Of a stretch of DNA of 64,000 nucleotides, positions 15,400-64,000 are shown in pieces; the stretch's first letter is position 1, and every line of letters begins with the position of its first letter. Origin of the DNA: Candidatus Poribacteria bacterium (GTDB taxonomy: Bacteria; Poribacteria; WGA-4E; WGA-3G); contig CAXXUA010000013.1 in assembly GCA_963663765.2 (NCBI GenBank), positions 576,001 through 640,000 of the forward strand, in the 5' to 3' direction. The notes under the pieces are model-generated. The model saw only the letters and a list, made by a program, of their open reading frames with translations, made no database searches and was not told the origin of the DNA. The translations under genes and the position numbers were made by a program.

Positions 15400-18300
15400 C
15401 TATTTCCTAATCAACATCTTCCGTATTTTCGTATAATTCCCCGCATTGAATTTGATGAAATAGACGCCTCCTGCCACCTTCTCACCGAGATTGTTTTTAC
15501 CATCCCAATGCGCAGCACGAGGTCGGCTATAATACACTCCAGCTGCCCGATGTCCCAACGCCAACTCCCTAACGACGACACCACGCACATTGTAGATTGT
15601 GAGTGTGACATCCGATGCTTCGGATAACTTGTAGGGAATCCACGTTTCGGGGTTGAACGGGTTAGGATAGTTTGGTAGAAAGGCAGTTGAATCAGGTATT
15701 TGTAACAGATTGTTCAGCTGTGTAAGACTACTGAGCGGTGGGCTGCCTCTATCTTCGGTAACTTGGATTCTAACGTTGATAGATGTGCTATCATTATCTT
15801 CGCCACTATCATCAGTTGCAATGACAGTTACATTATATCTTGACCAGCCTAACGTTTCGTAGCTTAAGAATACTTCGTTCGTTTGTAATTGTCCGGTGGT
15901 GCTATCAATAATAAACTTTGAAGCATCTGTGCCACCGAGACTATAGGTCAAAGAATCTCCATCAAGGTCAATAGCTGTTACCGGATCGCCAAAGTCTTCA
16001 CCCTTATAAGCAGCATTCTCATTAACAAATCGAGTGGTTGATAATCCATCAGGAAAATATGGAGCAGCATTATTACCATCGATTACAATAATTGGTGATG
16101 ATTCTATAAGTACATAGCCATCATGATGGGAAGGTAGACTGGGGACTCCATCATTTATCACCACAACAGAGCCAGTGCTATCACTGTTACGCGTTACGGT
16201 GAATGTTGAACTGTCTGTTGATCCCTTTGGAATAGTAATACTTGTTACATCTCCACTGATACTTCCGTCCTGTACATATACCGGTAAGTCAATACTAAAA
16301 GGAGCACCGGTTGGAGCAACTGCCTTAACCTCACCACTACTAACTTTCACCAATGATATATTAAGAGGCAGCGGATTAACTTTATTCCTATCCAAATAAA
16401 GTTTTGTGAGACTGGTTAAACCTACAAACGTACCTGCAGGAATAGCAGACAATTCATTATTATCCAATTCAAGTTGTTCCAGATTTGTAAGATTCTTAAA
16501 GATTTCATCTGGTAATGTGCTGATTTTATTTGATTGAAGATCAAGTGTTGTCAGTGCTGTGAGGTTGTCAAAAACACCATCTGGAAGACTAGTTAACGGA
16601 CCATTCTTGAGTTCAAGTGTCTTAAGTGAAGTCAGATTGTCAAAGACAGCACCAGATATCGTTCCGAGCTCGTGCCAAATCAAGCCCAGGTATGTTAAAT
16701 TTGTGAGATTGTCAAAAATGCCATCTGGAAGTGTTGTTAAATCGTTATGAGACAAGTTGAGTGTTGTCAAACTGGTAAGATTGTCAAAAATGCCATCTGG
16801 AAGTGTTGTTAATTTGTTTCCAACCAAGTTGAGTCCTGTCAAACTCGTGAGACCGTCAAAATCACCAGATTTTAGACCATTTGTCCGTATATCATCACGT
16901 CCAATTAGATCTATTGCTCCTGTAATCGCTAAAAGATGGTCACTTGTAACAGCAGCAGCGTCGTCAACACCGGATACCTTTGCGACAATTGCGTCTCGTA
17001 CCGATGCTGTTCGTTCACTGACAGGGGTTATACTTGTGTTAACATCTCTGAATACGGTAAGCGAATTCTCTTTTGTAAAACTATAGCCCTCGTGTCCTGA
17101 AGGTAAGTCGGGCAGATCCCCGAAAGCTGCAGTGACAGCGGTAGTCGTCCCCATAGTACGAATAATAGTGATCGTCTCGCTATTTGTTGCACCTGCGGCT
17201 ATTGTAACACCAGTCCCACCACCGCTTATACTTCCATTCGTAACAGTGATAGGAAAGTCGAATTCAAAGGGTAAGCCTATCGGAGCAACTACCTTAATCT
17301 TACCGATAGAAACAAATTGTAATATTAAATTGATGGATAACGGATCCACCGTATTACCCCCTAATTTAAGTTCCGTGATATTGGTTAAACCTTCAAATGT
17401 ACCTGTAGGAACAGCAGACAAATCATTACCATCCAATTCAAGGGTTTCCAGATTTGTAAGATTCTGAAAAATCCCCACAGGTAATACGTTGATGTCATTG
17501 CTATCCAAGTCAAGTGTTGTCAGTGCTGTCAGGTTGTCAAAAATGCCTGCTGGAAGACTTGTTAAAGACGCACTCTCAAGTTCAAGACTTTCAAGAGAAG
17601 TTAGATTGTCAATGACATTATTCCCTAACGTTTGAATGTTGTTTGAATTTAAGTTGAGATGCGTCAAACTGGTAAGATCCGAAAAAATACCAGTTGGAGG
17701 TGTATTTAAATTGTTGCCAGACAAGTTAAGACCGGTCAAACTCGTGAGACCGTGAAAATCACCAGATTTGATCCCATTTGACTGTAAATTGCTATTAGAA
17801 CTTAGGTCTAATGTTCCAGTAATCGCTGCAAGATGCGTTACTGTAACATCCGCTGCATCGGTAACGCCAGATACCTTTGCGACAATAGCATCACGAACTG
17901 CTGCTGTTCGGTCACTCACAGGGGTTATATTTGTGTTTACTCCTGTGGATATCGTGAGTGAATCTCCTTTTATAAGACTATAACCCTGGTGTCCTGAAGG
18001 TAGCGAGGGCATATCTCCAAAAGCCACAACGACATCGTTCGCAGCACTCCCAGCACGAGTTACCGTTATAGTCTCACTTTCTGTCGCACCTGTTGGTATC
18101 GTTACACCCGTTGCACCCCCACTGATAATGCCATTCGTAACAATAATAGGAAGTTCCAATTCAAAGGGTGCGCCTATCGGAGCAACCGCTTTAATGTTAC
18201 CTCCTGGAACTGTCACAAAATCTATATTGATAGGCAGTGGTTCAACTGCGTTATCATATAAATAGAGTTCTTTTATATTGGTTAAACCGGCAAACGTTCC

Positions 18301-21300
18301 TGCAGGTATAGTAGACAATTCATTACCATCCAATTCAAGGATTTCCAGATTTGTAAGATTCTTAAAGATCCCATCAGGTAATATGCTGATATCCTGACCA
18401 TCCAGATCAAGTCTTGTCAGTGCTGTAAGGTTGTCAAAAACACCCGCTGGAAGACTTGTTAAGTTACCGGCTTCAAGCTCAAGTATCTTAAGCGAAGTCA
18501 GATTATCAAAGATTGTAGCAGATATCATTGCGATCTCGGTAAAATCCAAGTTAAGGTGTGTCAAACTGGTGAGGTTATCAAAAACGCCATCTGGAAGCGT
18601 TGTTAACTCGTTAAGAAAGAAATCAAGCAGTGTCAAACTGGTAAGATTGTCAAAAATACCATCTGGAAGTGTTGTTATATCGTTACTGATCAACTTGAGT
18701 GTTGTCAAACTGGTAAGATTGTCAAAAATGCCATCTGGAAGTGTTGTTAACTCGTTTCCAGTCAAGTCGAGTGTTGTCAAACTGGTAAGGTCGTCAAAAA
18801 TGCCATCTGGCAGTGCTGTTAACATGGTTGAAAGCAGGTTGAGTTCTGCCAAACTCGTGAGACCGTCAAAATCGCCAGATTTGAGACCATTTGCCCTGAT
18901 ACTTTCATCCCCAGCTAGGTTCAGTGTTCCTGTGATCGCTGCAAGATGTGTTTCTGTAACATCAGATGCATAATCCACACCAGATACCTTTGCGACGATA
19001 GCATCGCGTATCCCTGCTGTTCGGTTAGCGACAGGTATGAAACTCTCATTTGCGTCTGTGACATTGATCGTAACAGCAATCGTATCGCTATCATTACTTG
19101 CCCCACTATCGTCAGTGACCTTGACAGTTACCGAATAGGAAGTCTTCGTTTCATAGTTCAACGCTGCCCTTGTTTGGAGTTGTCCACTCGTGCTAACAAT
19201 AGAAAATGATGATGCATCTGTGCCTTCAAGTGTATAGGTCAATATGTCATCAGTATCATCATCTGTAGCCGCTACAGGTGCACCGAAATTTTGTCCTGAG
19301 TCAGTATTTTCTGCGACAGAACGCGTTGTGCTTTCACCATCAAATACGGGTGCGTTGTTTGTTATCTGCTGCGAGACACGGGTCACAAAAATCGTGCCTG
19401 ATATTTCTGCGGTGGCACTATCAGGATCTGTAGCAATTACCTTAATTGAGTAAGCGGAACTCGTATCGTCAATGAGTGCTTGCGTCACCTTGATTTGTCC
19501 TGAACTGCTATCAATATCAAACTTAGCTGCATCATCACCACCGAGACTATAACTCAATGTGTCGTCATCAGCATCGGTCGCAGTAACCTTATCACCGATG
19601 CTATCGCCTACAGAAGCGTTTGCAATGTCTGATATTCTGTAGGAGAAACTATTATTTGAAAATGAGGGGGCGGTGTTCTCACTGACATCATTCACATTGA
19701 TGGTAACAGCAATCGTATCACTATTATTACTTGCACCACTATCATCAGTGACCTTGACAGTTACCGAATAGGAAGTCTTTGTCTCATAGTCCAACGTTAC
19801 GCTGGTTTGCAGCTGACCACTTGTGCTGACAATAGAAAACGATGCTGCATCTGTGCCTTCAAGCGTATAGGTCAATGTGTCATCAGTATCATCATCTGTA
19901 GCAGCGACAGGTTCACCGATATTTTGTCCTGATGCGGTATTTTCTGCGACTGAAAGCGTTGTGCTTTCACCATCATCAAATACGGGTGGGTTGTTTGTGT
20001 TCTGCTGCGAGACACGGGTAACAAATATCGTTCCTGATATTTCAGCAGTTGCACTATCAGGATCCGTAGCAATCACCTTTATTGCGTAGGCGGAACTGGT
20101 ATGATCAATAAGAGACTGTGTGATTTTCAGTTGTCCAGAACTGCTATCAATATCAAACTTAGCTGCATCATCACCCCCGAGACTGTAGGATAAAGTATCC
20201 TCATCAGCGTCGGTCGCAGTAACCTTATCACCGATGCTATCGCCTACAGAAGCGTTTTCAATGTCTGATATTCTATAGGAGAAACTACTTTCTGAAAATG
20301 AGGGTGCGGTGTTCTCATTGACATCTGTAACGTTGATGGTTACGGCAATTGTGTTGGTCAATGTATCATCAGTTACCTTTACAGTTACCGAATATGAAGT
20401 TGTTGTTTCATAATCTAATGCAGCGTTTGTTTGGAGCTGTCCACTCGTGCTGACAATAGAAAATGATGATGCATCTGTGCCTTCAAGTGTGTATTCTAAG
20501 GTGTCACCTTCGGGGTCTGTCGCGGAAACTGCACTGCCGATATTCTGTCCTGATGCAGTATGTTCAGCTATAGACCGGGTGGTTGGTGAACTTTCTGTGA
20601 ATGTGGGTGCTTCGTTGACATCCGTAACATTGATAGTGACAGGGATTGAATCTGTTCCACCATTTCCATCGGAGACCGATACCGTCACGGAATATGTGTC
20701 TTTGGTTTCATGGTCAAGTGCAGCATTTGTTCTGAGCTGTCCATTTGTGCTGTCAATACTAAACGAAGCCGCATCTGTTCCACCGAGTGAGTATTCCAGT
20801 GTATCATCGGTATCGGGGTCGGTTGCTTCCACTTTATCTCCGATGTCAATACCGGTCCCTGTGTTTTCATTTACATTTAGGGTTATGCTTTCAGCCGTGC
20901 CAAACGAAGGGTCGTTGTTCTCATTCACATCATTAACATTGATGGTGACAGCGATTGAATCTGTTCCACCATTTCCATCTGAGACCGATACCGTCACGGA
21001 ATATGTGTTTTTGGTTTCATAGTCCAGCGCAGCATTTGTTCTTATCTGTCCAGATGTGCTGTCAATACTAAACGAAGCCGCATCTGTTCCACCGAGTGAG
21101 TATTCCAGTGTATCATCGGTATCGGGGTCGGTTGCTTCCACTTTATCTCCGATGTCAATACCGGTACCTGTATTTTCATTTACATTGCGGGTTATGCTTT
21201 CAGCCGTGCCAAACGAAGGGTTGCTGTTCTCATCAACATCGGTGACTTTGATGGTAACAGCGATTGAATCTGATCCACCATTTCCATCTGAGACCGATAC

Positions 21301-24300
21301 CGTCACGGAATATGTGTTTTTGGTTTCATAGTCGAGCGCAACATTTGTTCTTATTTGTCCAGATGTGCTATTAATACTAAAGGAAGCCGCGTCTGTGCCA
21401 CCAAGGCTGTATTCTAATGTATCATCATCCCCATCTGTAGCAGCGACAGCATCACCAATATCTACACCTGAGAGTGTATTTTCAGCGATGGATCGTTCCG
21501 TGCTTTCACCATCTGTGAAAACAGGCGCGCTGTTCTCATCCACATCGGTGACTTTGATGGTAACGGTAATGGAATCCGTTCCACCATTTCCATCCGAGAC
21601 AGAAACGGTTACGGAATATGTGCTTTTTGTTTCATAGTCCAGGGCAGCATTTGTTCGGATTTGTCCAGATGTGCTATTAATACTAAAGGAAGCCGCGTCT
21701 GTGCCGCCAAGACTGTAGTCTAATGTGTCATCATCCGCATCTGTAGCAGCGACAGCATCACCAATATCTACACCTGAGAGTGTATTTTCAGCGATGGATC
21801 GTTCCGTGCTTTCACCATCTGTGAAAACAGGCGCGCTGTTCTCATCAACATCGGTGACTTTGATGGTAACAGTGATTGAATCCGTTCCACCATTGCCATC
21901 GGAGACCGATACCGTAACAGAATATGCGTTTTTTGTTTCATAGTCCAGCGCAGCTTTTGTTCTGATTTGTCCGTTTGTGCTGCCGATTTCAAATGAAGCG
22001 GCATCTGTTCCACCGAGTGAATATTCCAGTGTGGCATCATCTGCATCTGTAGCGGTTATTGCTGTGCCGATGTTGACACCAGCCCCCGTATTTTCAGCGA
22101 TGGATCGTTCCGCGCTTTCCCCGTCTGTGAAAACAGGCGCGGTGTTCTCATCAACATCCGTAACATTGATGGTGACAGGGATTGAATCCGTTCCACCATT
22201 GCCATCGGAGACCGATACCGTAACAGAATATGCGTTTTTTGTTTCATAGTCGAGTGCAGCTTTTGTTCTGAGTTGTCCATTTGTGCTGCCGAGACTGAAA
22301 GAGCTTCTATCTGTTCCACCGAGTGAATATTCGAGTGTGTCATCGGTATCGGGATCAGTAGCGGCTACTGCTGCACCGATGTTGACACCTGAACCCGTAT
22401 TTTCCGCAATGGATCGTTCCGCGCTTTCGCTACCAAATGTGGGTGCTTCGTTAACATCCGTAACAGTGATAGTGACAGCTATTGTGTCGGTGGCATCTCC
22501 TGTGTCGGTCGCTATAACTGTAACCGTATATGAATTTTTGGTTTCATAAACAAGTGCTGCTTTTGTTTTTAATTGTCCAGAAGTGCTAACAATGTCGAAC
22601 GATGCAGCATCCGTGCCACCGAGACTGTAGGTTATGGTGTCCTCAGCGTCAGGATCTGTTGCAGTGATGACGTTACCTAAGTTTGTGCCAGCAGCAGTCT
22701 TCTCAGCGACTTGACGTGTAATGGAGTCCCCATCGTTAAATACCGGTGCTTCGTTGACGTTTGTAACATTGATCGTGACCGTGATCTCATCTTCCAACGT
22801 GCCATCAGAGACAGTAACTATTACCTCATAAGAAGTCTTCGTTTCATAGTTTAGTGCCGCGCTGGTTTTCAACTGACCTGTGTCACCATCAATAGCAAAT
22901 GAAGAGGCATCAGTGCCACTGAGTAGATAAGCAAGATTTTCACTATCTTCGTCAGTCGCAGCAATCGCAGTGCCGATGTTGGCATCAGCAGCAGTATTCT
23001 CTGCAATTGTCCGTGTAGCCTCGTCACCATCAGTGAACACAGGTGCAATGTTTGAAGGCGTCTCGTCTAAATCCCTGACATTGATTGTCACTGCAATGGA
23101 ATCCGTTAGACTGCCATCTGATACCGCAATGGTTACAGAATAGGATGTTTTTGTTTCATAATCAAGTGCAGCCTTTGTTTTCAATTGTCCGGTTGTGGAT
23201 TCAATGTCAAATGATGTACCGTTCGTGCCACCGAGGGTGTAAGTTAATGTCGTGCTGTCAACATCCGTTGCTGACACAGCACTGCCGATGTTGATGCCAG
23301 AACCTGCATTTTCTGCGATTGTGCGGGTTGTGCTGGTGCCAGCAGTAAAAACGGGTGCTTCGTTGACGTTAGTTATGTTGATTGTCACAGATATGCTGGA
23401 ACTGCCGCCTTGATCATCGGAGACAGTGATGGTGACTGAATATGAAGATTTTGTTTCGTAATCCAGTGCTGCACTCGTTCGGAGTTGACCTGAACTACTA
23501 TCAATACTAAAGGAAGCGGCATCTGCTCCACTCATCCTATAAGATAAAGTGTCATCATCAGCATCTGTCGCAGATACAACACTACCGATGTTCACATTAG
23601 AGGCAGTATTTTCAGCAATGGTACGTGTTGTGCTACTCCCATTTGTGAAGACGGGTGCGTTGTTGACAGGACTTTCGTCGATATCGTTGACATTAATTGT
23701 GACCGTGATACTTGCACTCCCACCATTCCCATCTGAAACAGTGATGGTGACTGAATATGAATCTTTCGTTTCATAATCCAGTGCTGCACTCGTTCGGAGT
23801 TGTCCTGAACTACTATCAATACTAAAGGAAGTGGCATCTGTTCCACTCAGACTGTAGGACAACGTATCATCATCAGCATCCGTCGCAGAAACAGCAGTGC
23901 TAATGTCTACACCAGATTTGGTATTCTCATCTACAGAGCGCGTAGTGGTGCTCCCATCTGTGAATGTGGGTGCTGTGTTCGTCGCTTCATCAACATCCGT
24001 AACATTGATAGTGATGTTTATAGTATCACTTCCTCCCTTTCCATCGGAGACGTTGATGGTGACTGAATAGGAAGATTTTGTTTCATAGTCAAGTGCTGCG
24101 CTTGTTCGCAATTGTCCGTTTGTGCTTCCAATGCTAAATGAGGATGCATCTGTTCCACCCAGACTATAAGTTAAAGTGTCATTGTCCTCATCTGTCGCAG
24201 AAACAGCACTGCCAATGTCTACACCGGAACCCGTATTCTCTGCGACTGAACGGGATGCAGTCTCACCTTCTGTGAAGACAGGTGCTGTGTTCGTCGCTTC

Positions 24301-27300
24301 ATCAACATCCGTGATGTTGATAGTGACAGCAATAGTATCACTTCCGCCTTTTCTATCTGAGACAGTGATAGTGACTGAATAGGATGACTTTGTTTCATAG
24401 TCAAGTGCTGTGCTTGTTCGCAATTGACCATTTGTACTTCCAATACTGAATGAAGCGGCATCTGTGCCCCCCAGACTGTAAGTTAAAGTGTCATTGTCAA
24501 CATCCGTTGCAGAAACAGCACTGCCAATGTCTACACCGGAACCCGTATTCTCATCTATGGAGCGCGTAGTGGTGCTCCCATCTGTGAAGACAGGTGCTGT
24601 GTTCGTCGCTTCATCAACATCCGTAACATTGATAGTGACAGCAATAGTATCGCTTCCTCCCTTTCCATCGGAGACGTTGATGGTGACTGAATAGGAAGAT
24701 TTTGTTTCATAGTCAAGTGCTGCACTTGTTCGCAATTGTCCGTTTGTGCTTCCAATACTAAATGAGGATGCATCTGAGCCACTTAGACTATAAGTTAAAG
24801 TGTCATTGTCCTCATCTGTCGCAGAAACAGCAGTGCCAATGTCTACACCTGACCCCGTATTCTCATCTACGGAGCGCGTAGTGGTGCTCCCATCTGTGAA
24901 TGTGGGTGCTGTGTTCGTCGTTTCATCAACATCCGTGATGTTGATAGTGATGTTGATAGTATCGCTTCCCCCTTTTCCATCGGAGACAGTGATGGTGACT
25001 GAATTGGAAGATTTTGTTTCATAGTCAAGTGCTGCGTTCGTTCGCAATTGACCATTTGCGCTGCCAATACTAAACGATGACGCATCCGTGCCACTTAGGC
25101 TATAGCTCAAGGTATCATCATCAGCATCTGTTGCAGAAACAGCAGTGCCAATATTGACACCCGAGCCCGTATTCTCTGCGACTGAACGGGATGCAGTCTC
25201 ACCTTCTGTAAAGATCGGTGCCGTATTCAGTGCTTCTTCAACATCTGAGACATTTATTGTTACGGTTATTGTGTCGCTTCCATCGTTATCATCAGAGACG
25301 GTAATAATCACTGAATAGGAGGTCCTTGTTTCATAGTCAAGTGCTGTGTTCGTTCGCAATTGACCATTTGTGCTACCAATACTGAATGAAGTCGCATCAG
25401 AACCACCGAGAATGTATGTTAAAGTATCATCGTCAGCATCTGTTGCTGATACAGGATTACCGATATTGACACCAGAACCCGTATTTTCAGCAACTGTTCG
25501 TGTAGTGGTGCTACCTTCTGTGAAAACAGGAGCGTTATTCGGGGGATCAGTATCCTCCCCATCCGTTGTTTCATCGGTCGTTGGTGTTTCTACGATGTCG
25601 GTAATGTTGATCGTAACATCAATACTGTCCGTAAGGCTGCCATCAGAAACAGTGATCGTCACTGAATAGGAGTCCTTTGTTTCGTAATCAAGCGCGACCT
25701 TTGTCTGTAGTTGCCCCGATGTGCTATTTATGCTTAAGGATGCTGCATCGGTGCCTGAAACCGTATAAGTTAAGGTATCATTGTTAGCATCTGTGGCAGT
25801 GACAGCGGAACCAATGTCTGATCCTGCATCAGTATTCTCGGCGATAGAACGGGTTGTATTTATCCCTTCGGTGAATACAGGTGGTGTATTGACTGCGCTG
25901 TAGATTTCCAAAGGTAACTCGTTAGATTTTGCCAGGGCATACCCAATATGGTTCGTCGGTAAATTGGGTAATGTGCCAAAGTCTACTGTCACATCATCAT
26001 AAGTGTCGGGTGTGCGGTTCACCATCAAGGGTTGACTTTCTACGCTGCCTTTCAAAATTGTGATTGTGGTTGCATTATTATTCAAACTGCCGTTTGCAAC
26101 AGTGATCGGCAGCACAATATCAACAGGTGCACCTTTTGATATGACAACTTTGATTTGGTTTTCTCCAACTTTTTGAATTGTCATATTCAGGGATAATGGA
26201 TCAACTGTATTGCCGCTCAAATCCAGTGATGTCAAGGATGATAAACCCTCAAATACACCATCAGGTAGACTTTGTAATTGGTTATTTGATAGATTCAGTG
26301 TTGATAGTGACAGTAATCCTTCAAAATCATCTGCTTTCAATGATGTAATGTCCATGTCACTTAGATCAAGCGATGTAATGGTAGCAAGGTCTGCTTCTGA
26401 TATGTTTCGGCAATCTTCTATACCTTGTAGCGCGGATACTATTACATCACTAACCTGTATTGTGCGGTTGCAGACAGTAGATTTTGCAAGGATATATCCG
26501 AAATGGTTAGGAGGAATGCTTGGTAAGTTACCGATATTTACATCTGTCGTTGTCGCAACAAAAGATCCACTTGTCACACTTCCTTTCGGTATTGTGATAT
26601 TAGCGACACTTGCCTCATTGATAGGTAACACGATGTCGAATGGCGCGCCTGTAGGAATTATGGCTCTGAACTCATTATCAGACACTTGTTGCAATGACAC
26701 CATCAACGGCATTGGTGCAACAAGGTTGCCACCTAAACGAATTGAAGTGAGCGAGGTAAGATCTTCAAAGATACGAACAGGCAGGTTACGCAACATATTT
26801 CCATATAGGTTTAAACTTGTTAAACTTGTCAATCCAGAAAAATCACCGCTTTTGAGTTCTGAAATACCAGCAGACCGAAGGTTTAGAGAAGTAATCGTTG
26901 CAAGATGCGTATCTGTTACATCTGCTGCTACACTTACATCCGGGATTGCTGCAACGATGGCATCACGCACCATTGGTGTCCGATCACTGACAGCAAGCAT
27001 CGTTGAAACCGCTGGCGTGTCATCTAAATCAATGACAATTATGATGACAGAAATAGTTGATGTGAGTGTTTCATCGGAAGCATTTACAGATACAATATAG
27101 ATTCGTTTTGTTTCATAGTCTAATGCATTTTTTGTTTTCAGTTGTCCAGTGTCACTATCAATACTAAAAGAATCTGCGTTTAAACCACTAAGCGTGTATG
27201 CTAATGTATCGTTTTCAGTATCAGTCGCAGAAACGGCATTGCCGATATTCACATCAGCTGCACTGTTTTCGGACACTGAACGCAAAGTAATATTGCCATC

Positions 27301-40639: not shown

Positions 40640-43600
40640 CTATTTCAGTATTAACATTTTCCGCGTTGCTGTAAAATCGTTTGCCTTGAATGTGGTGAAA
40701 TATACACCTGCTGCGACTTTCTCACCGTTTGCGTTTCTACCATCCCAATATGCAGCACGTTTGCGGTCAGTATAATATCCAGCGGTTTTATGTCCCAAAT
40801 CCAACTTCCGAATGACGACACCACGCATATCGTAGATCGTCAAGGAAACATCGCCTGCTTCAGATAACTGGTAGGGTATCCATGTTTCTGGATTGAAGGG
40901 ATTGGGATAGTTTGAAAGTAGTGCCGTCTCATCTGGTATGAGTTGGGTGTTGGTCGGGGCACCACTAACTTCAGGAATAAGTTCCAATGGTAGGTTAGCA
41001 TTATTTATGTCTAAATAATATCCATGATTATCTAAAGATCTTTCGTAAAAAACAATGTCAATAGTGACGGTAACAGCATCAGTTGTATCATCCAATCGTA
41101 CCACACTTAAAGCATCGGTTTCTGCTTCACCAACTGGTATTCTTATTTGAGGTCTTCTATTGTCTAAAGTGACTATGTATCCATATTCTTGGTCTGGATG
41201 CACTTTACCATTACTGATTGGGACATTAATACGGTTATTATTAATTGGCATACCTGTCGGACAAACAACCTTGAACTGTCCTTCTGCGACTTTTTCCAGT
41301 CCCACCTTGATGGGGACACTGTCTGGTTGCGGATCTTCACCTTGAAAACCACATTGAAATAGAGTTAGTTCTGTGAGACCTACAAATATGCCATCGGGGA
41401 ATGAGGTTAAGTTGTTCCTGTTCAAAAAAAGTTTGGTTAAGTTGGTTAATTCACTAAATAAACCTGACGGTAGAGAACTGATATTATTATTTTCCAGAAC
41501 AAGTGTTGTCAGCTTCGAGTTATTGTCAAAGATATTACCTGGTAAGGAAGTCAAACTGTTATATCTTAAAGATAGGGATGTTAAATTCGTCAATTCTTCA
41601 AATATATCAGCAGACAAAGTTGTCAATTCATTACCTTCTAAAGATAGTGTTTCTAAATTCGTTAGTTCGTCAAAAACATCAGAATTTAAGGAACTAATAG
41701 AATTATATGACAAACCGAGGTATTCTAATTGTGTGTTATTGTCAAATACATCATCTGGTAATGAAGTAATTCCGTTTGAACCAATGGCAAGGGTTTTCAA
41801 CAATGTGAGTTCATCAAATATTCCATCTGGTAATGATGTGGTACCGTTAGAATAGTAGAGTAGTTTAATGAGTGAAATGGTATTATCAAACAATCCATCT
41901 GGCAAGGTAGATATATTATGATCATACATTTCAAGATTTTCCAGAGAAGTGAGGTCGTCAAAAATCCCAGCTCTAAGTGATGTTAATTGATTGGTTGTTT
42001 CAGATGCGAAAGTGGCTAAGTAAAGCGTTTTGAGGGATGTAAGTCCGTCAAAAACACCACCCGATAGGGTCGTGAACTCATTCAGATTCAAGTCAAGTAA
42101 TTCCAATGATGTGAGTTGGTCAAAGATCCCGTCTGGTAATGAAGTCAGTCCATTGTATCCAAGCTCAAGTTTTGTCAGTGATGTGAGACTATCAAATATA
42201 CCGTCAGGCAGTGTTGTAAAAGCGTTTTCGTCGTCATGAAAGAAGTTATTAAATGATAAATCAAGCTCGGTTAGTGAAGTAAGACCGTCAAAGATATCAA
42301 CAGGTAACGAACTGAATTTATTACTGCTTATATTTAATAATGTTAAACCCGTGAGTCCATCAAAATCACCTGATATTAGACCTGTTAAGTTCTTATTTCT
42401 AATATCCAATGTAGTGATTGCAGCAAGCTGTGATTCTGTCACATTTTCAGCTGCATCTACACCTTCAATAGCATCTACAATCGCATCTCGAACCGCACCT
42501 GTACGGTTACTGACAGGTGTAATGGAGTCTGATTCTGTTACGTCATTTACATTGATTGTAACAGCAATCGTATCACTTTCATTACTTGCACCACTATCAT
42601 CAGTGACCTTTACAGTCACCGAATAGGAAGTCTTTGTCTCATAGTCCAACGTTACTCTGGTTTGCAGCTGTCCACTTGTGCTAACAATACTGAACGATGA
42701 TGCATCTGTGCCTTCAAGTGTATAGGTCAATGTGTCATCAGTATCATCGTCTGTAGCAGCGACAGGTTCACCGATATTTTGTCCTGATGCGGTATTTTCT
42801 GCGACGGATCGCGTTGTGCTTTCACCATCATCAAATACGGGTGGGTTGTTTGTGTTCTGCTGTGAGACACGGGTAACAAATATCGTTCCTGAAATTTCAG
42901 CAGTTGCACTATCAGGATCCGTAGCAATCACCTTGATTGAATAAGCGGAACTGGTATGATCAATAAGAGACTGTGTGATTTTCAGTTGTCCAGAACTGCT
43001 ATCAATATCAAACTTAGCTGCATCATCACCCCCGAGACTGTAGGATAACGTATCCTCATCAGCGTCGGTCGCAGTAACCTTATCACCGATGCTATCGCCT
43101 ACAGAAGCGTTTGCAATGTCTGATATTCTGTATGCGAAACTACTTTCTGAAAATGAGGGTGCGGTGTTCTCACTGACATCTGTAACGTTGATGGTTACGG
43201 CAATTGTGTTGGTCAAGGAATCATCAGTTACTTTGACCGTTACGGAATATGAAGTTGTTGTTTCATAATCTAATGCAGCGTTTGTTTGGAGCTGTCCACT
43301 CGTGCTGACAATAGAAAATGATGATGCATCTGTGCCTTCAAGTGTGTATTCTAAGGTGTCACCTTCGGGGTCTGTCGCGGAAACTGCACTGCCGATATTC
43401 TGTGCAGAAGCAGTATGTTCTGCTATAGACCGGGTGGTTGGTGAAGCCTCTGTGAACGATGGTGCTTCGTTGACATCCGTAACATTGATGGTGACAGCGA
43501 TAGAATCTGTTCCACCATTTCCATCGGAGACCGATACCGTCACGGAATATGTGTCTTTGGTTTCATAGTCCAGTGCAGCATTTGTTCTTATCTGTCCAGA

Positions 43601-46600
43601 TGTGCTGTCAATACTGAAAGAGCTTGCATCTGTTCCACCGAGTGAGTATTCCAGTGTATCATCGGTATCGGGGTCGGTTGCTTCCACTTTATCTCCGATG
43701 TCAATACCGGTACCTGTATTTTCATTTACATTTAGGGTCACGCTTTCAGCCGTGCCAAACGAAGGGTTGCGGTTCTCATCAACATCGGTGACTTTGATGG
43801 TGACAGCGATTGAATCTGATCCACCATTGCCATCAGACACAGATACGGTTACGGAATATGTGCTTTTTGTTTCATAGTCGAGTGCAGCTTTTGTTCTGAG
43901 TTGTCCGTTTGTGCTGCCGATTTCAAATGAAGCGGCATCTGTGCCACCGAGTGAATATTCCAGTGTATCGTCGGTGTCAGGGTCAGTAGCGGCTACTGCT
44001 GTGCCGATGTTGACACCTGAACCCGTATTTTCAGCGATGGATCGTTCCGTGCTTTCACCATCTGTGAAAACAGGTGCGGTGTTCTCATCAACATCGGTGA
44101 CTTTGATGGCAACGGTAATGGAATCCGTTCCATCATTTCCATCCGAGACAGATACCGTCACGGAATATGTGTTTTTGGTTTCATAGTCGAGCGCAGCATT
44201 TGTTCTTATTTGTCCAGATGTGCTATTAATACTAAAGGAAGCCGCGTCTGTGCCGCCAAGACTGTAGTCTAATGTGTCATCATCCGCATCTGTAGCAGCG
44301 ACAGCATCACCGATATCTACACCTGAGAGTGTATTTTCAGCGATGGATCGTTCCGTGCTTTCACCATCTGTGAATACAGGTGCGGTGTTCTCATCAACAT
44401 CGGTGACTTTGATGGTAACGGTAATGGAATCCTTTCCATCATTTCCATCCGAGACAGAAACGGTTACGGAATATGTGTTTTTTGTTTCATAGTCCAGGGC
44501 AGCATTTGTTCTGATTTGTCCGTTTGTGCTGCCAATGTCAAATGAAGCGGCATCTGTGCCACCAAGACTGTAATTCAATGTGTCATCATCTGCATCTGTA
44601 GCGGTTATTGCTGTGCCGATGTTGACACCAGCCCCCGTGTTTTCAGCGATGGATCGTTCCGTGCTTTCACCATCTGTGAAAACAGGTGCTCGGTTCTCAT
44701 CAACATCGGTGACTTTGATGGTAACGGTAATGGAATCCGTTCCACCATTTCCATCAGAGACAGATACCGTAACAGAATATGCGTTTTTTGTTTCATAGTC
44801 CAGGGCAGTTTTTGTTCTGAGTTGTCCGTTTGTGCTGCCAATGTCAAATGAAGCGGCATCTGTCCCACCAAGACTGTAGTTCAATGTGTCATCATCTGCA
44901 TCTGTAGCGGAGACAGCATTTCCGATGTTGACACCAGCCCCCGTGTTTTCAGCGATGGATCGTTCCGCGCTTTCGCCATCTGTGAATACAGGTGCTCGGT
45001 TCTCGTCTACATCTGTAACATTGATGGTGACAGTGATTGTATCGGTGGTATCACCTGTGTCGGTCGCTATAACTGTAACTGTATATGAATTTTTAGTTTC
45101 GTAATCAAGAGCTGCTTTTGTTTTTAATTGTCCAGAAGTGCTAACAATGTTGAACGATGCAGCATCCGTGCCACCGAGACTGTAGGTTATGGTGTCCTCA
45201 GCGTCAGGATCTGTTGCAGTTATGACGTTACCTAAGTTTGTGCCAGCAGCAGTATTCTCAGCGACTTGACGTGTAATGGAGTCCCCATCGTTAAATACTG
45301 GTGCTTCGTTGACGTTTGTAACATTGATCGTGACGTTGATCTCATCTTCAAGCGTGCCATCAGAGACAGTAACTATTACCTCATAAGAAGTCTTCGTTTC
45401 ATAGTTTAGTGCCGTGCTGGTTTTCAACTGACCTGTGTCACCATCAATAGCAAATGAGGAGGCATCAGTGCCACTGAGTAGATATGCAAGATTTTCACTA
45501 TCCGCATCAGTCGCAGCAATTGCAGTGCCGATGTTGGTATTCGCTGCAGTATTCTCTGCAATTGTCCGTGTTGCTTCGTCACCATCAGTGAACACAGGTG
45601 CGACGTTTGAAGGTGTCTCGTCTAAATCCCTGACATTGATTGTCACCGCAATGGAATCCGTTAGACTGCCATCTGATACCGTAATGGTTACAGAATAGGA
45701 TGTTTTTGTTTCATAATCAAGTGCAGCCTTTGTTTTCAATTGTCCGGTTCTGGATTCAATGTCAAATGATGCACCGTTCGTGCCACCGAGGGTGTAAGTT
45801 AATGTCGTGCTGTCAACATCCGTTGCTGACACAGCACTGCCGATGTTGATGCCAGAACCTGCATTTTCTGCGATTGTGCGGGTTGTGCTGGTGCCAGCAG
45901 TAAAAATAGGTGCTTCGTTGACATTCGTAACGTTAATCGTTACGTTGATGCTGGAACTGCCACCTTGATCATCTGAGACAGTGATGGTGACTGAATATGA
46001 AGATTTTGTTTCGTAATCCAGTGCTGTACTCGTTCGGAGTTGACCTGAACTACTATCAATACTAAAGGAAGCGGCATCTATGCCACTGATCCTGTAAGAT
46101 AACGTATCATCATCAGCGTCTGTTGCAGCGACAGCGCTGCCGACGTTCACATTAGATGCAGTATTTTCAGCAATGGTACGTGTTGTGCTACTGCCATTTG
46201 TGAAGACGGGTGCGTTGTTGGCAGGACTTTCGTCGATATCGTTGACATTAATTGTGACCGTGATACTTGCACTCCCACCATTCCCATCTGAGACAGTGAT
46301 TGTGACTGAATAGGAATCTTTCGTTTCATAATCCAATGCTGCACTCGTTCGGAGTTGACCTGAACTACTATCAATACTAAAGGAAGCGGCATCTGTTCCA
46401 CTCAGACTGTAGGACAACGTGTCATTGTCAGCATCCGTCGCAGAAACAGCACTGCTAATATCTACACCAGATTTGGTATTCTCATCTACGGTGCGCGTTG
46501 TGCTTGTCCCATCTGTGAATGTAGGTGCTGTGTTCGTCGCTTCATCAACATCCGTAACATTGATAGTGATGTTTATAGTATCACTTCCTCCCTTTCCATC

Positions 46601-49600
46601 GGAGACGTTGATGGTGACTGAATAGGAAGATTTTGTTTCATAGTCAAGTGCTGCACTTGTTCGCAATTGTCCGTTTGTGCTTCCAATACTAAATGAGGAT
46701 GCATCTGAGCCACTTAGACTATAAGTTAAAGTGTCGTTGTCCTCATCTGTCGCAGAAACAGCGCTGCCAATGTCTACACCGGAACCCGTATTCTCTGCGA
46801 CTGAACGGGATGCAGTCTCACCTTCTGTGAAGACAGGTGCTGTGTTCGTCGCTTCATCAACATCCGTGATGTTGATAGTGACAGCAATAGTATCACTTCC
46901 GCCTTTTCTATCTGAGACAGTGATAGTGACTGAATAGGATGACTTTGTTTCATAGTCAAGTGCTGTGCTTGTTCGCAATTGTCCGTTTGTGCTTCCAATA
47001 CTAAATGAGGATGCATCTGAGCCACTTAGACTATAAGTTAAAGTGTCGTTGTCCTCATCTGTCGCAGAAACAGCGCTGCCAATGTCTACACCGGAACCCG
47101 TATTCTCTGCGACTGAACGGGATGCAGTCTCACCTTCTGTGAAGACAGGTGCTGTGTTCGTCGCTTCATCAACATCCGTAACATTGATAGTGACACCAAT
47201 AGTATCACTTCCCCCTTTTCCATCGGAGACAGTGATGGTGACTGAATAGGAAGATTTTGTTTCATAGTCAAGTGCTGCACTTGTTCGCAATTGTCCGTTT
47301 GTGCTTCCAATACTAAATGAGGATGCATCTGAGCCACTTAGACTATAAGTTAAAGTGTCGTTGTCCTCATCCGTTGCAGAAACAGCGCTGCCAATGTCTA
47401 CACCGGAACCCGTATTCTCAGCGACTGAACGGGATGCAGTCTCACCTTCTGTAAAGAGCGGTGCCGTATTCACTGCTTCTTCAACATCCGAGACATTTAT
47501 TGTTACGGTTATTGTGTCGCTTCCATCGTTATCATCAGAGACGGTAATAATCACTGAATAGGAGGTCCTTGTTTCATAGTCGAGGGCTGTGTTCGTTCGC
47601 AATTGACCATTTGTGCTACCAATACTGAATGAAGTCGCATCAGAACCACCGAGAATGTATGTTAAAGTATCATCGTCAGCATCTGTTGCTGATACAGGAT
47701 TACCGATATTGACACCAGAACCTGTATTTTCAGCAACTGTTCGTGTAGTGGTGCTACCTTCTGTGAAAACAGGAGCGTTATTCGGGGTATCAGTATCCTC
47801 CACATCCGTAGTGGGTGCTTCTACAACGTCGGTAATGTTGATTGTAACATCAATGCTGTCCGTAAGGCTGCTATCAGAAACAGTGATCGTCACTGAATAG
47901 GAGTCCTTTGTTTCGTAATCAAGCGCGACCTTTGTCTGTAGTTGTCCCGATGTGCTATTTATGCTAAAGGATGCTGCATCGGTGCCAGAAACCGTATAAG
48001 TTAAGGTATCATTGTTAGCATCTGTGGCAGTGACAGCGGAACCAATGTCTGATCCTGCATCAGTATTCTCGGCGATAGAACGGGTTGTATTTATCCCTTC
48101 GGTGAATATAGGTGGTGTATTGACTGCGCTGAAGATTTCCAGAGGTAACTCGTTAGATTCTGCCAAGGCATACCCATTATGGTTCGTCGGTAAATTGGGT
48201 AATGTGCCAAAGTCTACTGTCACCGCATCATAAGTGTCGGGTGTGCGGTTCACCATCAAGGGTTGACTTTCTACGCTGCCTTTCAAAATTGTGATAGTGG
48301 TTGCATTATTATTCAAACTGCCGTTTGCAACAGTGATCGGCAGCACAATATCAAAAGGTGCACCTGTTGATATGACAACTTTGATTTGGTTTTCTCCAAC
48401 TTTTAGAATTGTCATATTCAGGGAAAATGGATCAACTGTATTGCCGCTCAAATCCAGTGATGTCAAAGATGTCAAACCTTCAAAAATCCCATCAGGTAGA
48501 CTTTGTAATTGGTTATTTGATAGATTCAGTGTTGATAGTGACAGTAATCCTTCAAAATCACCCGCTTGGAGCGCACTTATTGAAGCACTGCTAAGATCTA
48601 AGGCAGTAACGGTAGCAAGGTCCGCTTCTGATATGTTCCGGCAATCTTCTATACCTTGTAGCGCGGATACTATTACATCACTAACCTGTATTGTGCGGTT
48701 GCAGACAGTGGATTTAGCAAGGATATATCCGAAATGGTTAGGAGGAAGGCTTGGTAAGTTACCGATATTTACATCTGTCGTTGTCGCAACAAAAGATCCA
48801 CTTGTCACACTTCCTTTCGGTATTGTGATATTAGCGACACTTGCCTCATTGATCGGTAACACAATGTTGAATGGCGCGCCTGTAGGAATGATGGCTCTGA
48901 ACTCATTATCAGACACTTGTTGCAATGACACCATCAACGGCATTGGTGCAACAAGGTTGCCACCTAAACGAATTGAAGTGAGCGAGGTGAGATCTTCAAA
49001 GATACGAACAGGCAGGTTACGCAACATATTTCCATATAGGTTTAAACTTGTTAAACCTGTCAATCCAGAAAAATCACCGCTATTGAGTTCTGAAATACCA
49101 GCAGACCGAAGGTTTAGAGAAGTAATCGTTGCAAGATGCGTATCTGTTACATCTGCTGCTACACTTACATCCGGGATTGCTGCAACGATGGCATCACGCA
49201 CCTTTGGTGTCCGATCACTGACAGCAAGCATCGTTGAAACCGCTGGCGTGTCATCTAAATCAATGACATTAATGATGACAGAAATAGTTGATGTGAGTGT
49301 TTCATCGGAAGCATTGACAGAAACAATATAGATTCGTTTTGTTTCATAGTCTAATGCATTTTTTGTTTTCAGTTGTCCAGTGTCACTATCAATACTAAAA
49401 GAATCTGCGTTTAAACCACTAAGCGTGTATGCTAATGTATCGTTTTCAGTATCAGTTGCAGAAACGGCATTCCCGATATTCACATTAGCCGCCGTGTTTT
49501 CCGACACTGAACGCAAAGTAATATTGCCATCAGCAAAGGTCGGTGCGGTGTTTTCAGGTGTTTCAGGTTGTGTGGGAGTCTCTGGTTCCACTGGTGTTTC

Positions 49601-50296
49601 AGGTGTTGTGCTGGTGGCACTGATCACTTCAATGGGCAATGTATCAGATTTAGAAAGAACATAACCGTAGTGATGACTCGGCAAACTGGATAGCGTTCCG
49701 ATATTAGCTGTTACTGCTGCAGTCGTTCCTGCAGCGCGAGTTACCGTGACAGCAGTACTTTCTACTGCACCTTTAGAAATGGTCAGAGATGTCATATTCC
49801 CGCTAATGCTACCATTGGTAGGACTGATGGGAATACTCATAGTGAACGGTGCGCCTGTCGCGACAACGGCTTTAATCTGATCCTCTCCAACTTTTTCCAA
49901 TAAGATGGTAATTTGCATAGGATCAACAGTGTTCCCACCTAATCGCAGAGTTGTTAGTGCCGTGAGTCCTTCAAAGATACCATCGGGCAGACTGCTCAGT
50001 TCGTTGCCATATAAGTTCAGGTTAGTCAGACCAGTCATCCCAGAAAAATCTCCCGATTTTAGTGCTGTAATACCTTTTGACCGTAGGTTTAGTTCTGTAA
50101 TAGCTGTAAGGTCGTCTTCGGTGACATCTGCTGCGGAATTGACGCCCGCGGCAGTCACGATAGCAGCCTGTACCTCTGTTGTTCGCTCACTTACTGGTGT
50201 AATCTCCGCTGAACTTGTAACTGGTAAACCGAAGAAAACTAATGAACAAAGTAAAACAGATAGGACGGAACTCAGATTCTTGAGTTGTGTTTTCAT
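40640..50296 (-). CDS. Giant secreted LRR/cadherin protein C (3,218 aa)
   Basis: Different signal peptide but the same stalk family as A/B; ~19 cadherin-like repeats; one long tip of roughly 18 LRRs; C-terminal domain nearly identical to B. Confidence 0.9.
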   Translation of the reverse strand: MKTQLKNLSSVLSVLLCSLVFFGLPVTSSAEITPVSERTTEVQAAIVTAAGVNSAADVTEDDLTAITELNLRSKGITALKSGDFSGMTGLTNLNLYGNELSSLPDGIFEGLTALTTLRLGGNTVDPMQITILLEKVGEDQIKAVVATGAPFTMSIPISPTNGSISGNMTSLTISKGAVESTAVTVTRAAGTTAAVTANIGTLSSLPSHHYGYVLSKSDTLPIEVISATSTTPETPVEPETPTQPETPENTAPTFADGNITLRSVSENTAANVNIGNAVSATDTENDTLAYTLSGLNADSFSIDSDTGQLKTKNALDYETKRIYIVSVNASDETLTSTISVIINVIDLDDTPAVSTMLAVSDRTPKVRDAIVAAIPDVSVAADVTDTHLATITSLNLRSAGISELNSGDFSGLTGLTSLNLYGNMLRNLPVRIFEDLTSLTSIRLGGNLVAPMPLMVSLQQVSDNEFRAIIPTGAPFNIVLPINEASVANITIPKGSVTSGSFVATTTDVNIGNLPSLPPNHFGYILAKSTVCNRTIQVSDVIVSALQGIEDCRNISEADLATVTALDLSSASISALQAGDFEGLLSLSTLNLSNNQLQSLPDGIFEGLTSLTSLDLSGNTVDPFSLNMTILKVGENQIKVVISTGAPFDIVLPITVANGSLNNNATTITILKGSVESQPLMVNRTPDTYDAVTVDFGTLPNLPTNHNGYALAESNELPLEIFSAVNTPPIFTEGINTTRSIAENTDAGSDIGSAVTATDANNDTLTYTVSGTDAASFSINSTSGQLQTKVALDYETKDSYSVTITVSDSSLTDSIDVTINITDVVEAPTTDVEDTDTPNNAPVFTEGSTTTRTVAENTGSGVNIGNPVSATDADDDTLTYILGGSDATSFSIGSTNGQLRTNTALDYETRTSYSVIITVSDDNDGSDTITVTINVSDVEEAVNTAPLFTEGETASRSVAENTGSGVDIGSAVSATDEDNDTLTYSLSGSDASSFSIGSTNGQLRTSAALDYETKSSYSVTITVSDGKGGSDTIGVTINVTDVDEATNTAPVFTEGETASRSVAENTGSGVDIGSAVSATDEDNDTLTYSLSGSDASSFSIGSTNGQLRTSTALDYETKSSYSVTITVSDRKGGSDTIAVTINITDVDEATNTAPVFTEGETASRSVAENTGSGVDIGSAVSATDEDNDTLTYSLSGSDASSFSIGSTNGQLRTSAALDYETKSSYSVTINVSDGKGGSDTINITINVTDVDEATNTAPTFTDGTSTTRTVDENTKSGVDISSAVSATDADNDTLSYSLSGTDAASFSIDSSSGQLRTSAALDYETKDSYSVTITVSDGNGGSASITVTINVNDIDESPANNAPVFTNGSSTTRTIAENTASNVNVGSAVAATDADDDTLSYRISGIDAASFSIDSSSGQLRTSTALDYETKSSYSVTITVSDDQGGSSSINVTINVTNVNEAPIFTAGTSTTRTIAENAGSGINIGSAVSATDVDSTTLTYTLGGTNGASFDIESRTGQLKTKAALDYETKTSYSVTITVSDGSLTDSIAVTINVRDLDETPSNVAPVFTDGDEATRTIAENTAANTNIGTAIAATDADSENLAYLLSGTDASSFAIDGDTGQLKTSTALNYETKTSYEVIVTVSDGTLEDEINVTINVTNVNEAPVFNDGDSITRQVAENTAAGTNLGNVITATDPDAEDTITYSLGGTDAASFNIVSTSGQLKTKAALDYETKNSYTVTVIATDTGDTTDTITVTINVTDVDENRAPVFTDGESAERSIAENTGAGVNIGNAVSATDADDDTLNYSLGGTDAASFDIGSTNGQLRTKTALDYETKNAYSVTVSVSDGNGGTDSITVTIKVTDVDENRAPVFTDGESTERSIAENTGAGVNIGTAITATDADDDTLNYSLGGTDAASFDIGSTNGQIRTNAALDYETKNTYSVTVSVSDGNDGKDSITVTIKVTDVDENTAPVFTDGESTERSIAENTLSGVDIGDAVAATDADDDTLDYSLGGTDAASFSINSTSGQIRTNAALDYETKNTYSVTVSVSDGNDGTDSITVAIKVTDVDENTAPVFTDGESTERSIAENTGSGVNIGTAVAATDPDTDDTLEYSLGGTDAASFEIGSTNGQLRTKAALDYETKSTYSVTVSVSDGNGGSDSIAVTIKVTDVDENRNPSFGTAESVTLNVNENTGTGIDIGDKVEATDPDTDDTLEYSLGGTDASSFSIDSTSGQIRTNAALDYETKDTYSVTVSVSDGNGGTDSIAVTINVTDVNEAPSFTEASPTTRSIAEHTASAQNIGSAVSATDPEGDTLEYTLEGTDASSFSIVSTSGQLQTNAALDYETTTSYSVTVKVTDDSLTNTIAVTINVTDVSENTAPSFSESSFAYRISDIANASVGDSIGDKVTATDADEDTLSYSLGGDDAAKFDIDSSSGQLKITQSLIDHTSSAYSIKVIATDPDSATAEISGTIFVTRVSQQNTNNPPVFDDGESTTRSVAENTASGQNIGEPVAATDDDTDDTLTYTLEGTDASSFSIVSTSGQLQTRVTLDYETKTSYSVTVKVTDDSGASNESDTIAVTINVNDVTESDSITPVSNRTGAVRDAIVDAIEGVDAAENVTESQLAAITTLDIRNKNLTGLISGDFDGLTGLTLLNISSNKFSSLPVDIFDGLTSLTELDLSFNNFFHDDENAFTTLPDGIFDSLTSLTKLELGYNGLTSLPDGIFDQLTSLELLDLNLNEFTTLSGGVFDGLTSLKTLYLATFASETTNQLTSLRAGIFDDLTSLENLEMYDHNISTLPDGLFDNTISLIKLLYYSNGTTSLPDGIFDELTLLKTLAIGSNGITSLPDDVFDNNTQLEYLGLSYNSISSLNSDVFDELTNLETLSLEGNELTTLSADIFEELTNLTSLSLRYNSLTSLPGNIFDNNSKLTTLVLENNNISSLPSGLFSELTNLTKLFLNRNNLTSFPDGIFVGLTELTLFQCGFQGEDPQPDSVPIKVGLEKVAEGQFKVVCPTGMPINNNRINVPISNGKVHPDQEYGYIVTLDNRRPQIRIPVGEAETDALSVVRLDDTTDAVTVTIDIVFYERSLDNHGYYLDINNANLPLELIPEVSGAPTNTQLIPDETALLSNYPNPFNPETWIPYQLSEAGDVSLTIYDMRGVVIRKLDLGHKTAGYYTDRKRAAYWDGRNANGEKVAAGVYFTTFKANDFTATRKMLILK

Positions 50297-63999: not shown

Positions 64000-64000
64000 G

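Follow-up and report, generated by a model that had tools for sequence, protein, structure and literature searches.

LigA and LigB of Leptospira begin with an identical N-terminal run of immunoglobulin (Ig)-like repeats and then diverge, and giant RTX adhesins carry a long repeat stalk followed by modular C-terminal ligand-binding domains that lie distally. Listeria internalins and Leptospira leucine-rich repeat (LRR) proteins present a surface LRR solenoid, followed by Ig- or cadherin-like spacers, and bind the host. Recombination between adhesin paralogues is described for babA, babB and babC of Helicobacter pylori (PMC3444412, PMC4552749), whose conserved segments recombine within the genome into chimeras, and for the yeast FLO genes (PMC3512402), repeat-rich paralogues in which ectopic recombination yields chimeric alleles and reassorts binding and stalk parts. 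For the phylum Poribacteria, Kamke et al. 2014 (PMC3909097) gave counts of LRR and cadherin domains, among others, in fragmentary single-cell genomes. Here we analyze a stretch of 64,000 nucleotides (nt) from a Candidatus Poribacteria bacterium (assembly GCA_963663765.2, contig CAXXUA010000013.1, positions 576,001 to 640,000; hereafter the window), in which five large open reading frames (ORFs), A to E, all on the minus strand, form a tandem array of giant genes for LRR/cadherin proteins predicted to reside at the cell surface. We consider it likely that the bodies of A, B and C have been homogenized by homologous recombination and that the same process joins their LRR regions to other heads and stalks.

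The Lig proteins and the RTX adhesins differ from this array in repeat fold and secretion route; no HemolysinCabind/RTX family appears in the Pfam tables of A to E (13 to 17 families per protein, E ≤ 0.001), and the C-terminal modules, distal in RTX adhesins, would be proximal here if the proteins are anchored by their C termini. Internalins and Leptospira LRR proteins are far smaller, have a single N-terminal LRR domain and use sortase, GW or lipoprotein anchoring. The H. pylori genes encode small outer-membrane proteins at dispersed loci and switch within infections, whereas the array genes are giant, tandem and of the type IX secretion system (T9SS) type, with recombination seen at the evolutionary scale only; the FLO genes belong to a eukaryote, encode different folds and lie in a subtelomeric context. 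With the proteins of Kamke et al., the array shares the phylum, the LRR and cadherin domains, the putative signal peptides and the TIGR04183 tail, but the passages of that paper on such proteins do not describe tandem arrays, shared stalks, mosaics or transfer between species, and its supplementary tables S7–S9 may list such genes; we found no description of such Poribacteria arrays in the literature. The kind of process is an ordinary one, already known from recombining adhesin paralogues elsewhere and seen here with unusual clarity; the novelty lies in the phylum, the giant LRR–cadherin–T9SS architecture, the clean junctions at domain borders and the apparent transfer between species. The original prediction, a model's reading of the same letters and ORFs, knew of no such system being described, which holds for this phylum and architecture but not for the concept.

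The five proteins follow a common plan. Behind a putative signal peptide comes a head of ~720 amino acids (aa), in which one cadherin separates two LRR modules; ~20 cadherins follow, then a variable region where LRR modules stand alone or have cadherins between them, and last a C-terminal domain of ~100 aa starting NYPNPFNPETWIPY. Gene A (15400..28113, minus strand; 4,237 aa from the listed TTG, with a likely start, MMQRVP, at 28041) has 22 stalk cadherins behind the putative signal peptide and the LRR–cadherin–LRR head, and then three tandem LRR modules, one cadherin and a C-terminal sorting domain. Gene B (28123..40623, minus strand; 4,166 aa, likely start at 40554) has the head and stalk of A followed by LRR–cadherin–LRR–cadherin–LRR and the C-terminal domain. 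Gene C (40640..50296, minus strand; 3,218 aa) differs in its putative signal peptide and combines an A/B-type head and stalk, less about two cadherins, with one LRR region of ~500 aa and the C-terminal domain. The three variable regions, which we call tips, are thus built as the original prediction had described them.

The bodies of A, B and C are nearly identical, again as predicted. Aligned from the 5′ end, A and B agree at 96.94% in 8,441 columns, and megablast aligns 19685–28423 with 32186–40940 over 8,764 nt at 96.9%. These two repeat units, both on the minus strand, run past the gene starts: the first (19685..28423) holds the body of A, the spacer and the last ~300 nt of B, and the second (32186..40940) the body of B, the spacer and the last ~300 nt of C, the ~300 nt in each case encoding the C-terminal domain. 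The spacers between B and A and between C and B measure ~80 nt, and the C-terminal domains of B and C are 95–99% identical. Because the repeat spans the gene boundary, the homogenized unit consists of the C-terminal domain, the spacer, the head and the stalk, and excludes the nonhomologous tip alone, a point absent from the original prediction. The body of C (42540..50233, minus strand) is ~95% identical to those of A and B but carries indels of whole cadherin repeats; when the three are aligned with gaps, its identity to A and B lies at 0.87–0.98 in most windows of 300 nt, with gaps of whole repeats, and only the first ~250 nt, covering the putative signal peptide, fall to 0.70. Local BLAST of C gives just 81–90% owing to these register shifts.

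In each gene the identity breaks off where a cadherin repeat ends, at 19685 in A, 32186 in B and 42540 in C, and the motif DDSGASN.SDTIAVTINV is found there in all three. The original prediction had placed the ends at about 32190 and 42540 for B and C, in agreement with these figures, but its position near 19060 for A is a second copy of the motif, 211 aa further on (~19057 in the window). The segment that ends in this second copy (19063..19684, minus strand) holds two extra cadherin repeats present in A only, which are 83% identical in a shifted register.

The differences among the three bodies do not follow a single tree. In the stalk, 7,745 columns aligned in all three genes yield 642 informative sites, of which 437 distinguish C, 140 A and 65 B, and these patterns are strongly clustered, forming 118 runs in comparison with 308.4 ± 9.3 (minimum 279) in 5,000 shuffles. 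Such a clustered mosaic implies a history of the A, B and C stalks that no one tree describes. Synonymous divergence in the stalk (dS; here and below Nei–Gojobori estimates on MAFFT alignments) is 0.074 for A–B, 0.186 for A–C and 0.162 for B–C. The ratio of nonsynonymous to synonymous divergence (dN/dS) is ~0.2 and the reading frames are intact over 12.7 kb; the low ratio indicates that these genes are under purifying selection.

The tips behave differently from the bodies. No two of their LRR regions exceed 52% protein identity, and a tblastn search with the five tips found no copy of at least 70% identity elsewhere in the genome; the sole nearer matches were to the two extra cadherins of A (89% and 76%) and to the C-terminal domains. 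Counterparts of two tips were found in congeners, which we compared as one genome per species (G044, G049 and G003). G044 has four tandem genes of this type (g1–g4) and G049 has one (g1), in both cases followed by counterparts of D and E, so that array copy number is 1 in G049, 3 here and 4 in G044. As a baseline for the locus, the first 2.76 kb of D have dS of 0.117 to G044 and 0.175 to G049. The tip of A is collinear over 3.8 kb with G044_g4 (91.9%, dS 0.149) and G049_g1 (91.3%, dS 0.175); the A tip proper (15628..19023, minus strand), which spans three LRR modules, one cadherin and the first part of the C-terminal domain, is 92–100% identical per window to these two genes. The 3′ end of C (40649..43361, minus strand), comprising the last cadherins, the tip and the C-terminal domain, is collinear with G044_g3 at 91.5% over 2,717 nt (dS 0.226 over 2.7 kb). 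In G044, as here, the C-type gene lies directly upstream of the A-type gene.

The heads on these tip-matched genes are far more distant than the tips, with dS of 0.706 between A and G044_g4, 1.19 between A and G049_g1 and 0.877 between C and G044_g3. Within this genome the heads are close, with dS between those of A, B and C of only 0.063–0.125; in G044 the g3 and g4 heads stand 0.80 apart. A tree of the heads unites A, B and C in one clade with support 100/100, and the approximately unbiased (AU) test rejects grouping the heads by A-type tip (P = 2e-4) or by C-type tip (P = 6e-5). The heads and stalks of A, B and C are thus alike within this genome, the A and C tips have their counterparts in other genomes and the stalk sites are mosaic, the combination expected under concerted evolution by interlocus gene conversion.

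Gene A itself is a mosaic of three parts: B-like down to 19685, g4-like from ~19023 to ~15628, and D-like over the last ~165–220 nt. Its C-terminal end (15403..15627, minus strand; the last ~220 nt) is of the D type, with 62–72% identity to G044_g4, and the last ~165 nt are 93–95% identical to the D genes of this genome and of G044, which places a recombination junction inside the C-terminal domain. The other junction of A falls in its last cadherins, where these border on the LRR modules. A second candidate recombinant is G049_g1, which matches G044_g1 at 95–98% through most of the initial 3.3 kb, apart from 600–1200, where identity drops to 77%, and G044_g4 at 92–100% per window from ~7.2 to 11.4 kb. 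By its sequence it is a g1-head/g4-tip chimera of the four-gene G044 array, the product expected of a body–body recombination that deletes the genes in between. In G003, assembled as a single contig, an independent four-gene array (G003:C1:738143-781717) shows a comparable pattern: 7,772 nt are common to the nonadjacent genes 1 and 4, with 95.7% identity, gene 2 stands at ~86%, and the 3′ parts are dissimilar.

Together, these observations support a reassortment of stalks and tips over evolutionary time. The process would be homologous recombination between tandem paralogues, by gene conversion and unequal crossing-over, with tracts that cover all the common sequence (the upstream C-terminal domain, the spacer, the head and the stalk) and end at the nonhomologous LRR regions. 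The same recombination would yield chimeras, changes of copy number and LRR regions set on a different head and stalk, the outcome being a common scaffold that carries different LRR binding modules. The original prediction had proposed the stalk and the C-terminal domain as recombination arms for exchanging tips. The head/tip discordance, the junctions of A and the G049_g1 chimera uphold this at the evolutionary scale, but not as a dedicated or ongoing exchange: the tips of A and C are collinear in two other species and keep the same C-then-A order, a finding that the prediction itself had named as speaking against it. Nor is tip exchange necessarily what changed, as the stalk appears to have been overwritten or homogenized at least as much.

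Several points weigh against this explanation. With three genomes compared, either the stalk or the tip may have been the moving part. The groups submitted to the AU test were set from the tip data, but after the first head tree had been seen. A genome search for donors of the densest divergent patches in A and B was negative, and some of these patches may be relics rather than conversion tracts: of the six densest patches, four have weaker partial matches (at most 97% over part of their length), one has no second match and one (A 7340–7405) is identical in B. A patch of A at gene positions 1725–1785 is 92% identical over 52 nt to G044_g2 and g3, which is only suggestive of a relic or a foreign tract. 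None of the four other clusters of the family (on contigs C2, C3, C5 and C6) contains inter-gene blocks of at least 88% identity over at least 800 nt, their repeats being intragenic and tandem. As the data are an assembly consensus, the fine mosaic within the genome may partly consist of consensus or polishing errors among near-identical repeats. The T9SS machinery discussed below is visible only as homologues below threshold, and GldM was not found.

Finally, the tip of B (28424..32185, minus strand) is an orphan without a counterpart anywhere searched. Its best match among the other 39 genomes of the genus is 53% in protein over 952 of 1,127 aa, at another locus of G049; short stretches reach 66%, and contigs from Joint Genome Institute (JGI) metagenomes gave 33% at best. 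A 601-aa query across the stalk/tip junction of B had 1,806 relatives at E ≤ 1e-30 among 8,000 scored candidates (330–1,052 aa), but none above 62% identity among the 120 best listed and no independent copy of the junction. For the g1 and g2 tips of G044, only the C-terminal domains match this genome; with the orphan B tip, this means that tip repertoires differ between the species.

The similarity of the array to its counterparts is at odds with the relationship of the genomes. The array is 91–97% identical per window (D, E and the tips of A and C) to the G044 and G049 loci, and rpoB is at only ~76–77%. In a codon alignment the rpoB gene, on the same contig as the array, is 76% identical to that of both G044 and G049, with dS of ~2.4–2.5, a range in which the estimate is saturated; between G044 and G049 the figures are 94.7% and 0.22. 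Among the 38 of 40 genus genomes with a match, the nearest rpoB genes are those of G037 (89%) and G016 (88%), with G044 and G049 at 77% and the bulk at 76–79%. Neither G037 nor G016 has a match to the A tip at E ≤ 1e-20, a weak negative as both are fragmented assemblies. The genes flanking the array on both sides are 66–81% identical to genes at unlinked places in G044 and G049, and the flanks have no match of at least 300 nt in the array neighborhoods of G044, G049 and G003. Even the bodies of A, B and C are nearer to the G044 array genes (78–90% per window) than to other paralogues of their own genome (at most 68%). The whole array was thus probably moved horizontally between distant congeners as a 56-kb adhesin island, and the G044/G049 clade, whose sister species keep the locus in synteny, is the likelier source. 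The conclusions on stalks and tips use the baseline of the locus itself and are independent of this transfer.

A bolder reading, which we regard as possible but rather doubtful, is that the genes belong to a mobile modular receptor family, in which co-resident Poribacteria swap LRR modules, alone or with their genes, through the stalk and C-terminal-domain arms. In its logic it resembles the exchange of C-terminal domains in polymorphic toxins, but with binding modules.

The same discrepancy could also be put down to the assembly, either as a collapsed, chimeric or cross-polished repeat or as a contig joining two co-occurring Poribacteria species. Near-identical 8-kb repeats are hard to assemble, and a locus at 92–96% to G044/G049 on a contig whose rpoB is at 77% is what such a join would look like. 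Yet the three bodies differ at ~250–440 sites, with unbroken frames and the dN/dS of ~0.2 given above, and both flanks stand at the usual divergence of the genome. Within the array, the spacer between D and C contains a palindromic cluster (50380..51060, no strand assigned) resembling miniature inverted-repeat transposable elements (MITEs), with at least four tandem long-hairpin units of ~150 nt; their family numbers 214 copies in this genome, spread over 12 contigs and matching at up to 100%, and has at best a partial 82% match in G044/G049. Comparable arrays are present in G003, a single contig, and in G044, which has seven. An artefact is for these reasons improbable.

Marginally less probable still is a simple recent tandem duplication of one gene, after which the 3′ ends diverged very rapidly or were replaced, without gene conversion. 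The tandem arrangement with its 12.5-kb period and the A–B body dS of just 0.06–0.07 are what this would predict. The A and C tips are nevertheless old, having counterparts at 91–92% nucleotide identity in two species, on heads separated by dS of 0.7–1.2; moreover, the tips are dissimilar in sequence (≤52%) and architecture, the site patterns are mosaic rather than tree-like, and the repeat unit spans the gene boundary.

Least probable, and very unlikely in our view, is a dedicated ongoing switch in the manner of antigenic or phase variation, by which a cell lineage would exchange the tips on one expressed stalk that stays constant. Homologous sequence does lie on both sides of each tip (stalk and C-terminal domain), as is the geometry of such systems, but none of the five genes is incomplete or lacks a putative signal peptide of its own, the genome has neither truncated nor silent copies of the tips, the nine flanking ORFs scanned include no recombinase, invertase or reverse transcriptase, 14000–64000 contains no homopolymer tracts, and the A and C tips keep their order across species. 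Three known kinds of variable system were also considered and rejected. Cassette-based antigenic variation of the pilE/pilS or vlsE type was rejected as tblastn against the genome found no silent truncated donor cassettes. A diversity-generating retroelement was set aside as no reverse transcriptase occurs among the nine flanking ORFs, a scan that took in neither smaller ORFs nor template and variable repeats. Polymorphic toxins of the CdiA/Rhs type do not fit either, the variable parts being LRR and cadherin only and the ~80-nt spacers leaving no room for an immunity ORF.

The domain content of the five proteins is consistent throughout. Pfam Cadherin, LRR_8 and FlgD_ig matched all five, FlgD_ig above its cut-off in each; PF00028 matched at E = 1.7e-253 to 2.2e-54, with 5–24 stretches per protein, and PF13855 at E = 1e-122 to 8e-48. 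By a profile built from one repeat, the cadherin-like domains of A to E number 24, 24, 19, 13 and 24. Most cadherin repeats bear motifs resembling LDYE, DxD and DxNDxxP, taking these motifs as generally defined, and LDYE-like motifs occur in 17 of 24, 19 of 24 and 17 of 19 cadherin domains of A, B and C. The stalk motifs probably fit a calcium-stiffened rod, in which the repeats would bind calcium. The LRR modules of the tips are 30–50% identical to one another and to the head modules. A single-sequence structure model of the C tip and C-terminal domain has a mean predicted local distance difference test (pLDDT) score of 56.6 and is usable for residues 1–390 only, which form an LRR solenoid with periodic strands (pLDDT mostly 63–90). 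Foldseek matches of this model include Toll (E = 1.2e-9), LRRTM2 (35–40% identity), LGR4/5, internalin A (InlA, 2omw) and Leptospira LIC10831 (4u06). The evidence supports giant LRR/cadherin surface proteins that would be secreted. Judged by domain content only, their most likely role is that of a repertoire on a common scaffold, adhesive in nature, for attachment to or recognition of ligands on the sponge host or neighboring cells.

The last 133 aa of A match TIGR04183, the T9SS type-A sorting domain, at 32.7 bits (cut-off 23), and Por_Secre_tail of Pfam is listed for two of the five proteins below its cut-off of 27 (20.6 and 24.7 bits). The N-termini, read by eye, are hydrophobic and end in SFA/EITPV or SSA/EITPV, without a lipobox cysteine. 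As the putative signal peptide looks cleavable and lacks a lipobox, the C-terminal T9SS-type domain is the sole candidate anchor. Elsewhere in the genome we found a SprA/Sov-like ORF of 2,162 aa (TIGR04189 at 147.7 bits, below the cut-off of 200; G000:C4:1172792-1179277), a PorV-like ORF (108.8 bits, below 250; G000:C15:37447-38436) and three PorU-like ORFs (268–292 bits, below 420; C5:1258611-1265033, C4:398938-405432 and C5:1472844-1478141). A profile search of the genome gave no match to PF14349 (SprA_N), and GldM had none in this genome or in G003, in a search that covered GldM but not GldK, GldL or GldN; on a Pontibacter control, the PF14349, PorV and GldM models gave 517, 465 and 442 bits. 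A divergent T9SS-like export route is plausible. Kamke et al. 2014 (PMC3909097) found TIGR04183 tails on poribacterial repeat proteins and, in the text of that paper, reported no Por structural genes, in contrast to the subthreshold SprA-, PorV- and PorU-like genes present here. Anchoring by the C terminus would place the variable LRR modules close to the cell and the conserved LRR head distally, the reverse of a distal tip, which makes both that picture and the word tip, used in the original prediction, doubtful.

Two further genes complete the array. Gene D (51345..61094, minus strand; 3,249 aa) has 13 cadherins and five tandem C-terminal LRR modules, and its counterparts in G044 and G049 are collinear at 91–97% nucleotide identity per window, as are those of E. 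Gene E (24 cadherins, one C-terminal LRR module and the C-terminal domain; full protein 3,387 aa) enters the window with its 3′ part only (61285..64000, minus strand), and ~7.4 kb lie past the window end. The C-terminal LRR modules of D are tandem copies at 90–93% nucleotide identity (window 55411–58391). D measures 9,759 nt here, 6,762 in G044 and 8,166 in G049, and E 10,173 nt here and 7,506 in G049; these length differences point to changes of repeat copy number between species.

The array covers 15400–64000 of the window and continues to ~71450 (G000:C13:591403-647460) in a source genome of 6.35 Mb in 15 contigs, 97.8% complete (labelled G000, with the array on contig C13). Its place is with Candidatus Poribacteria: the head has five relatives in a named genome collection, of which the three closest are Candidatus Poribacteria bacterium metagenome-assembled genomes, and relatives in the named protein collection come from Poribacteria in nearly all cases. 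NCBI names among them are "T9SS type A sorting domain-containing protein", "cadherin domain-containing protein" and "leucine-rich repeat protein" [Candidatus Poribacteria bacterium]. About 20 more giant ORFs with the same kind of tail are clustered on contigs C2, C3, C5, C6 and C7. Outside the giant genes the window has no other ORF of at least 300 aa apart from the flanking ORFs scanned. The spacer between B and A has no terminator-like site. Promoter-like sites, all weak, number four where shuffles give 1.5 ± 1.3, which we take as no evidence.

Several mobile or repetitive elements surround the array. Directly downstream of A (window 14350–15370) lies a dense array of a ~29-nt palindromic element resembling repetitive extragenic palindromes (REPs), with the core GGTAGGAGCGACCTCCTGGTCGCGACCG and two alternating spacers; a 118-nt unit occurs 38 times, on contigs C13, C4 and C5. 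It is not an array of clustered regularly interspaced short palindromic repeats (CRISPR), as the spacers repeat. Upstream of E are two MITE-like families (G000:C13:648291-648491 and 648889-649192), the first with 45 copies here (closest 98–99%) and ~30 in G044 at 87–91%, the second with 7 copies here and 6 in G044 at 97%, so that the two genomes have these mobile-element families in common. The window also encodes an IS605-type OrfB/TnpB ORF with a Cas12f-like TNB domain (1044–2234), two adjacent WD40 beta-propeller proteins of ~685 aa (5154–7214 and 7398–9455), a eukaryote-like class typical of the phylum, and a MutH/MvaI-BcnI-like endonuclease with an N6_N4 DNA methylase (12428–14153), a likely restriction–modification pair with the array on one side and a PhyH dioxygenase on the other.

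Poribacteria, which are uncultivated, are dominant symbionts of sponges, and their LRR and cadherin proteins, the usual candidates for interaction with the host, have mostly been known as domain counts. The locus described here indicates that eukaryote-like proteins of this kind can form arrays of complete genes of 3,200–4,200 aa, in which the scaffold and the binding modules have separate histories and recombination junctions fall at domain borders. It also suggests that Poribacteria would encode divergent T9SS parts, which bears on the export of eukaryote-like proteins. Adhesin repertoires may move between symbiont species, and, were the mobile modular receptor family to prove true, sponge symbionts would have a fast-evolving, shareable repertoire for recognizing hosts and partners on a common scaffold.

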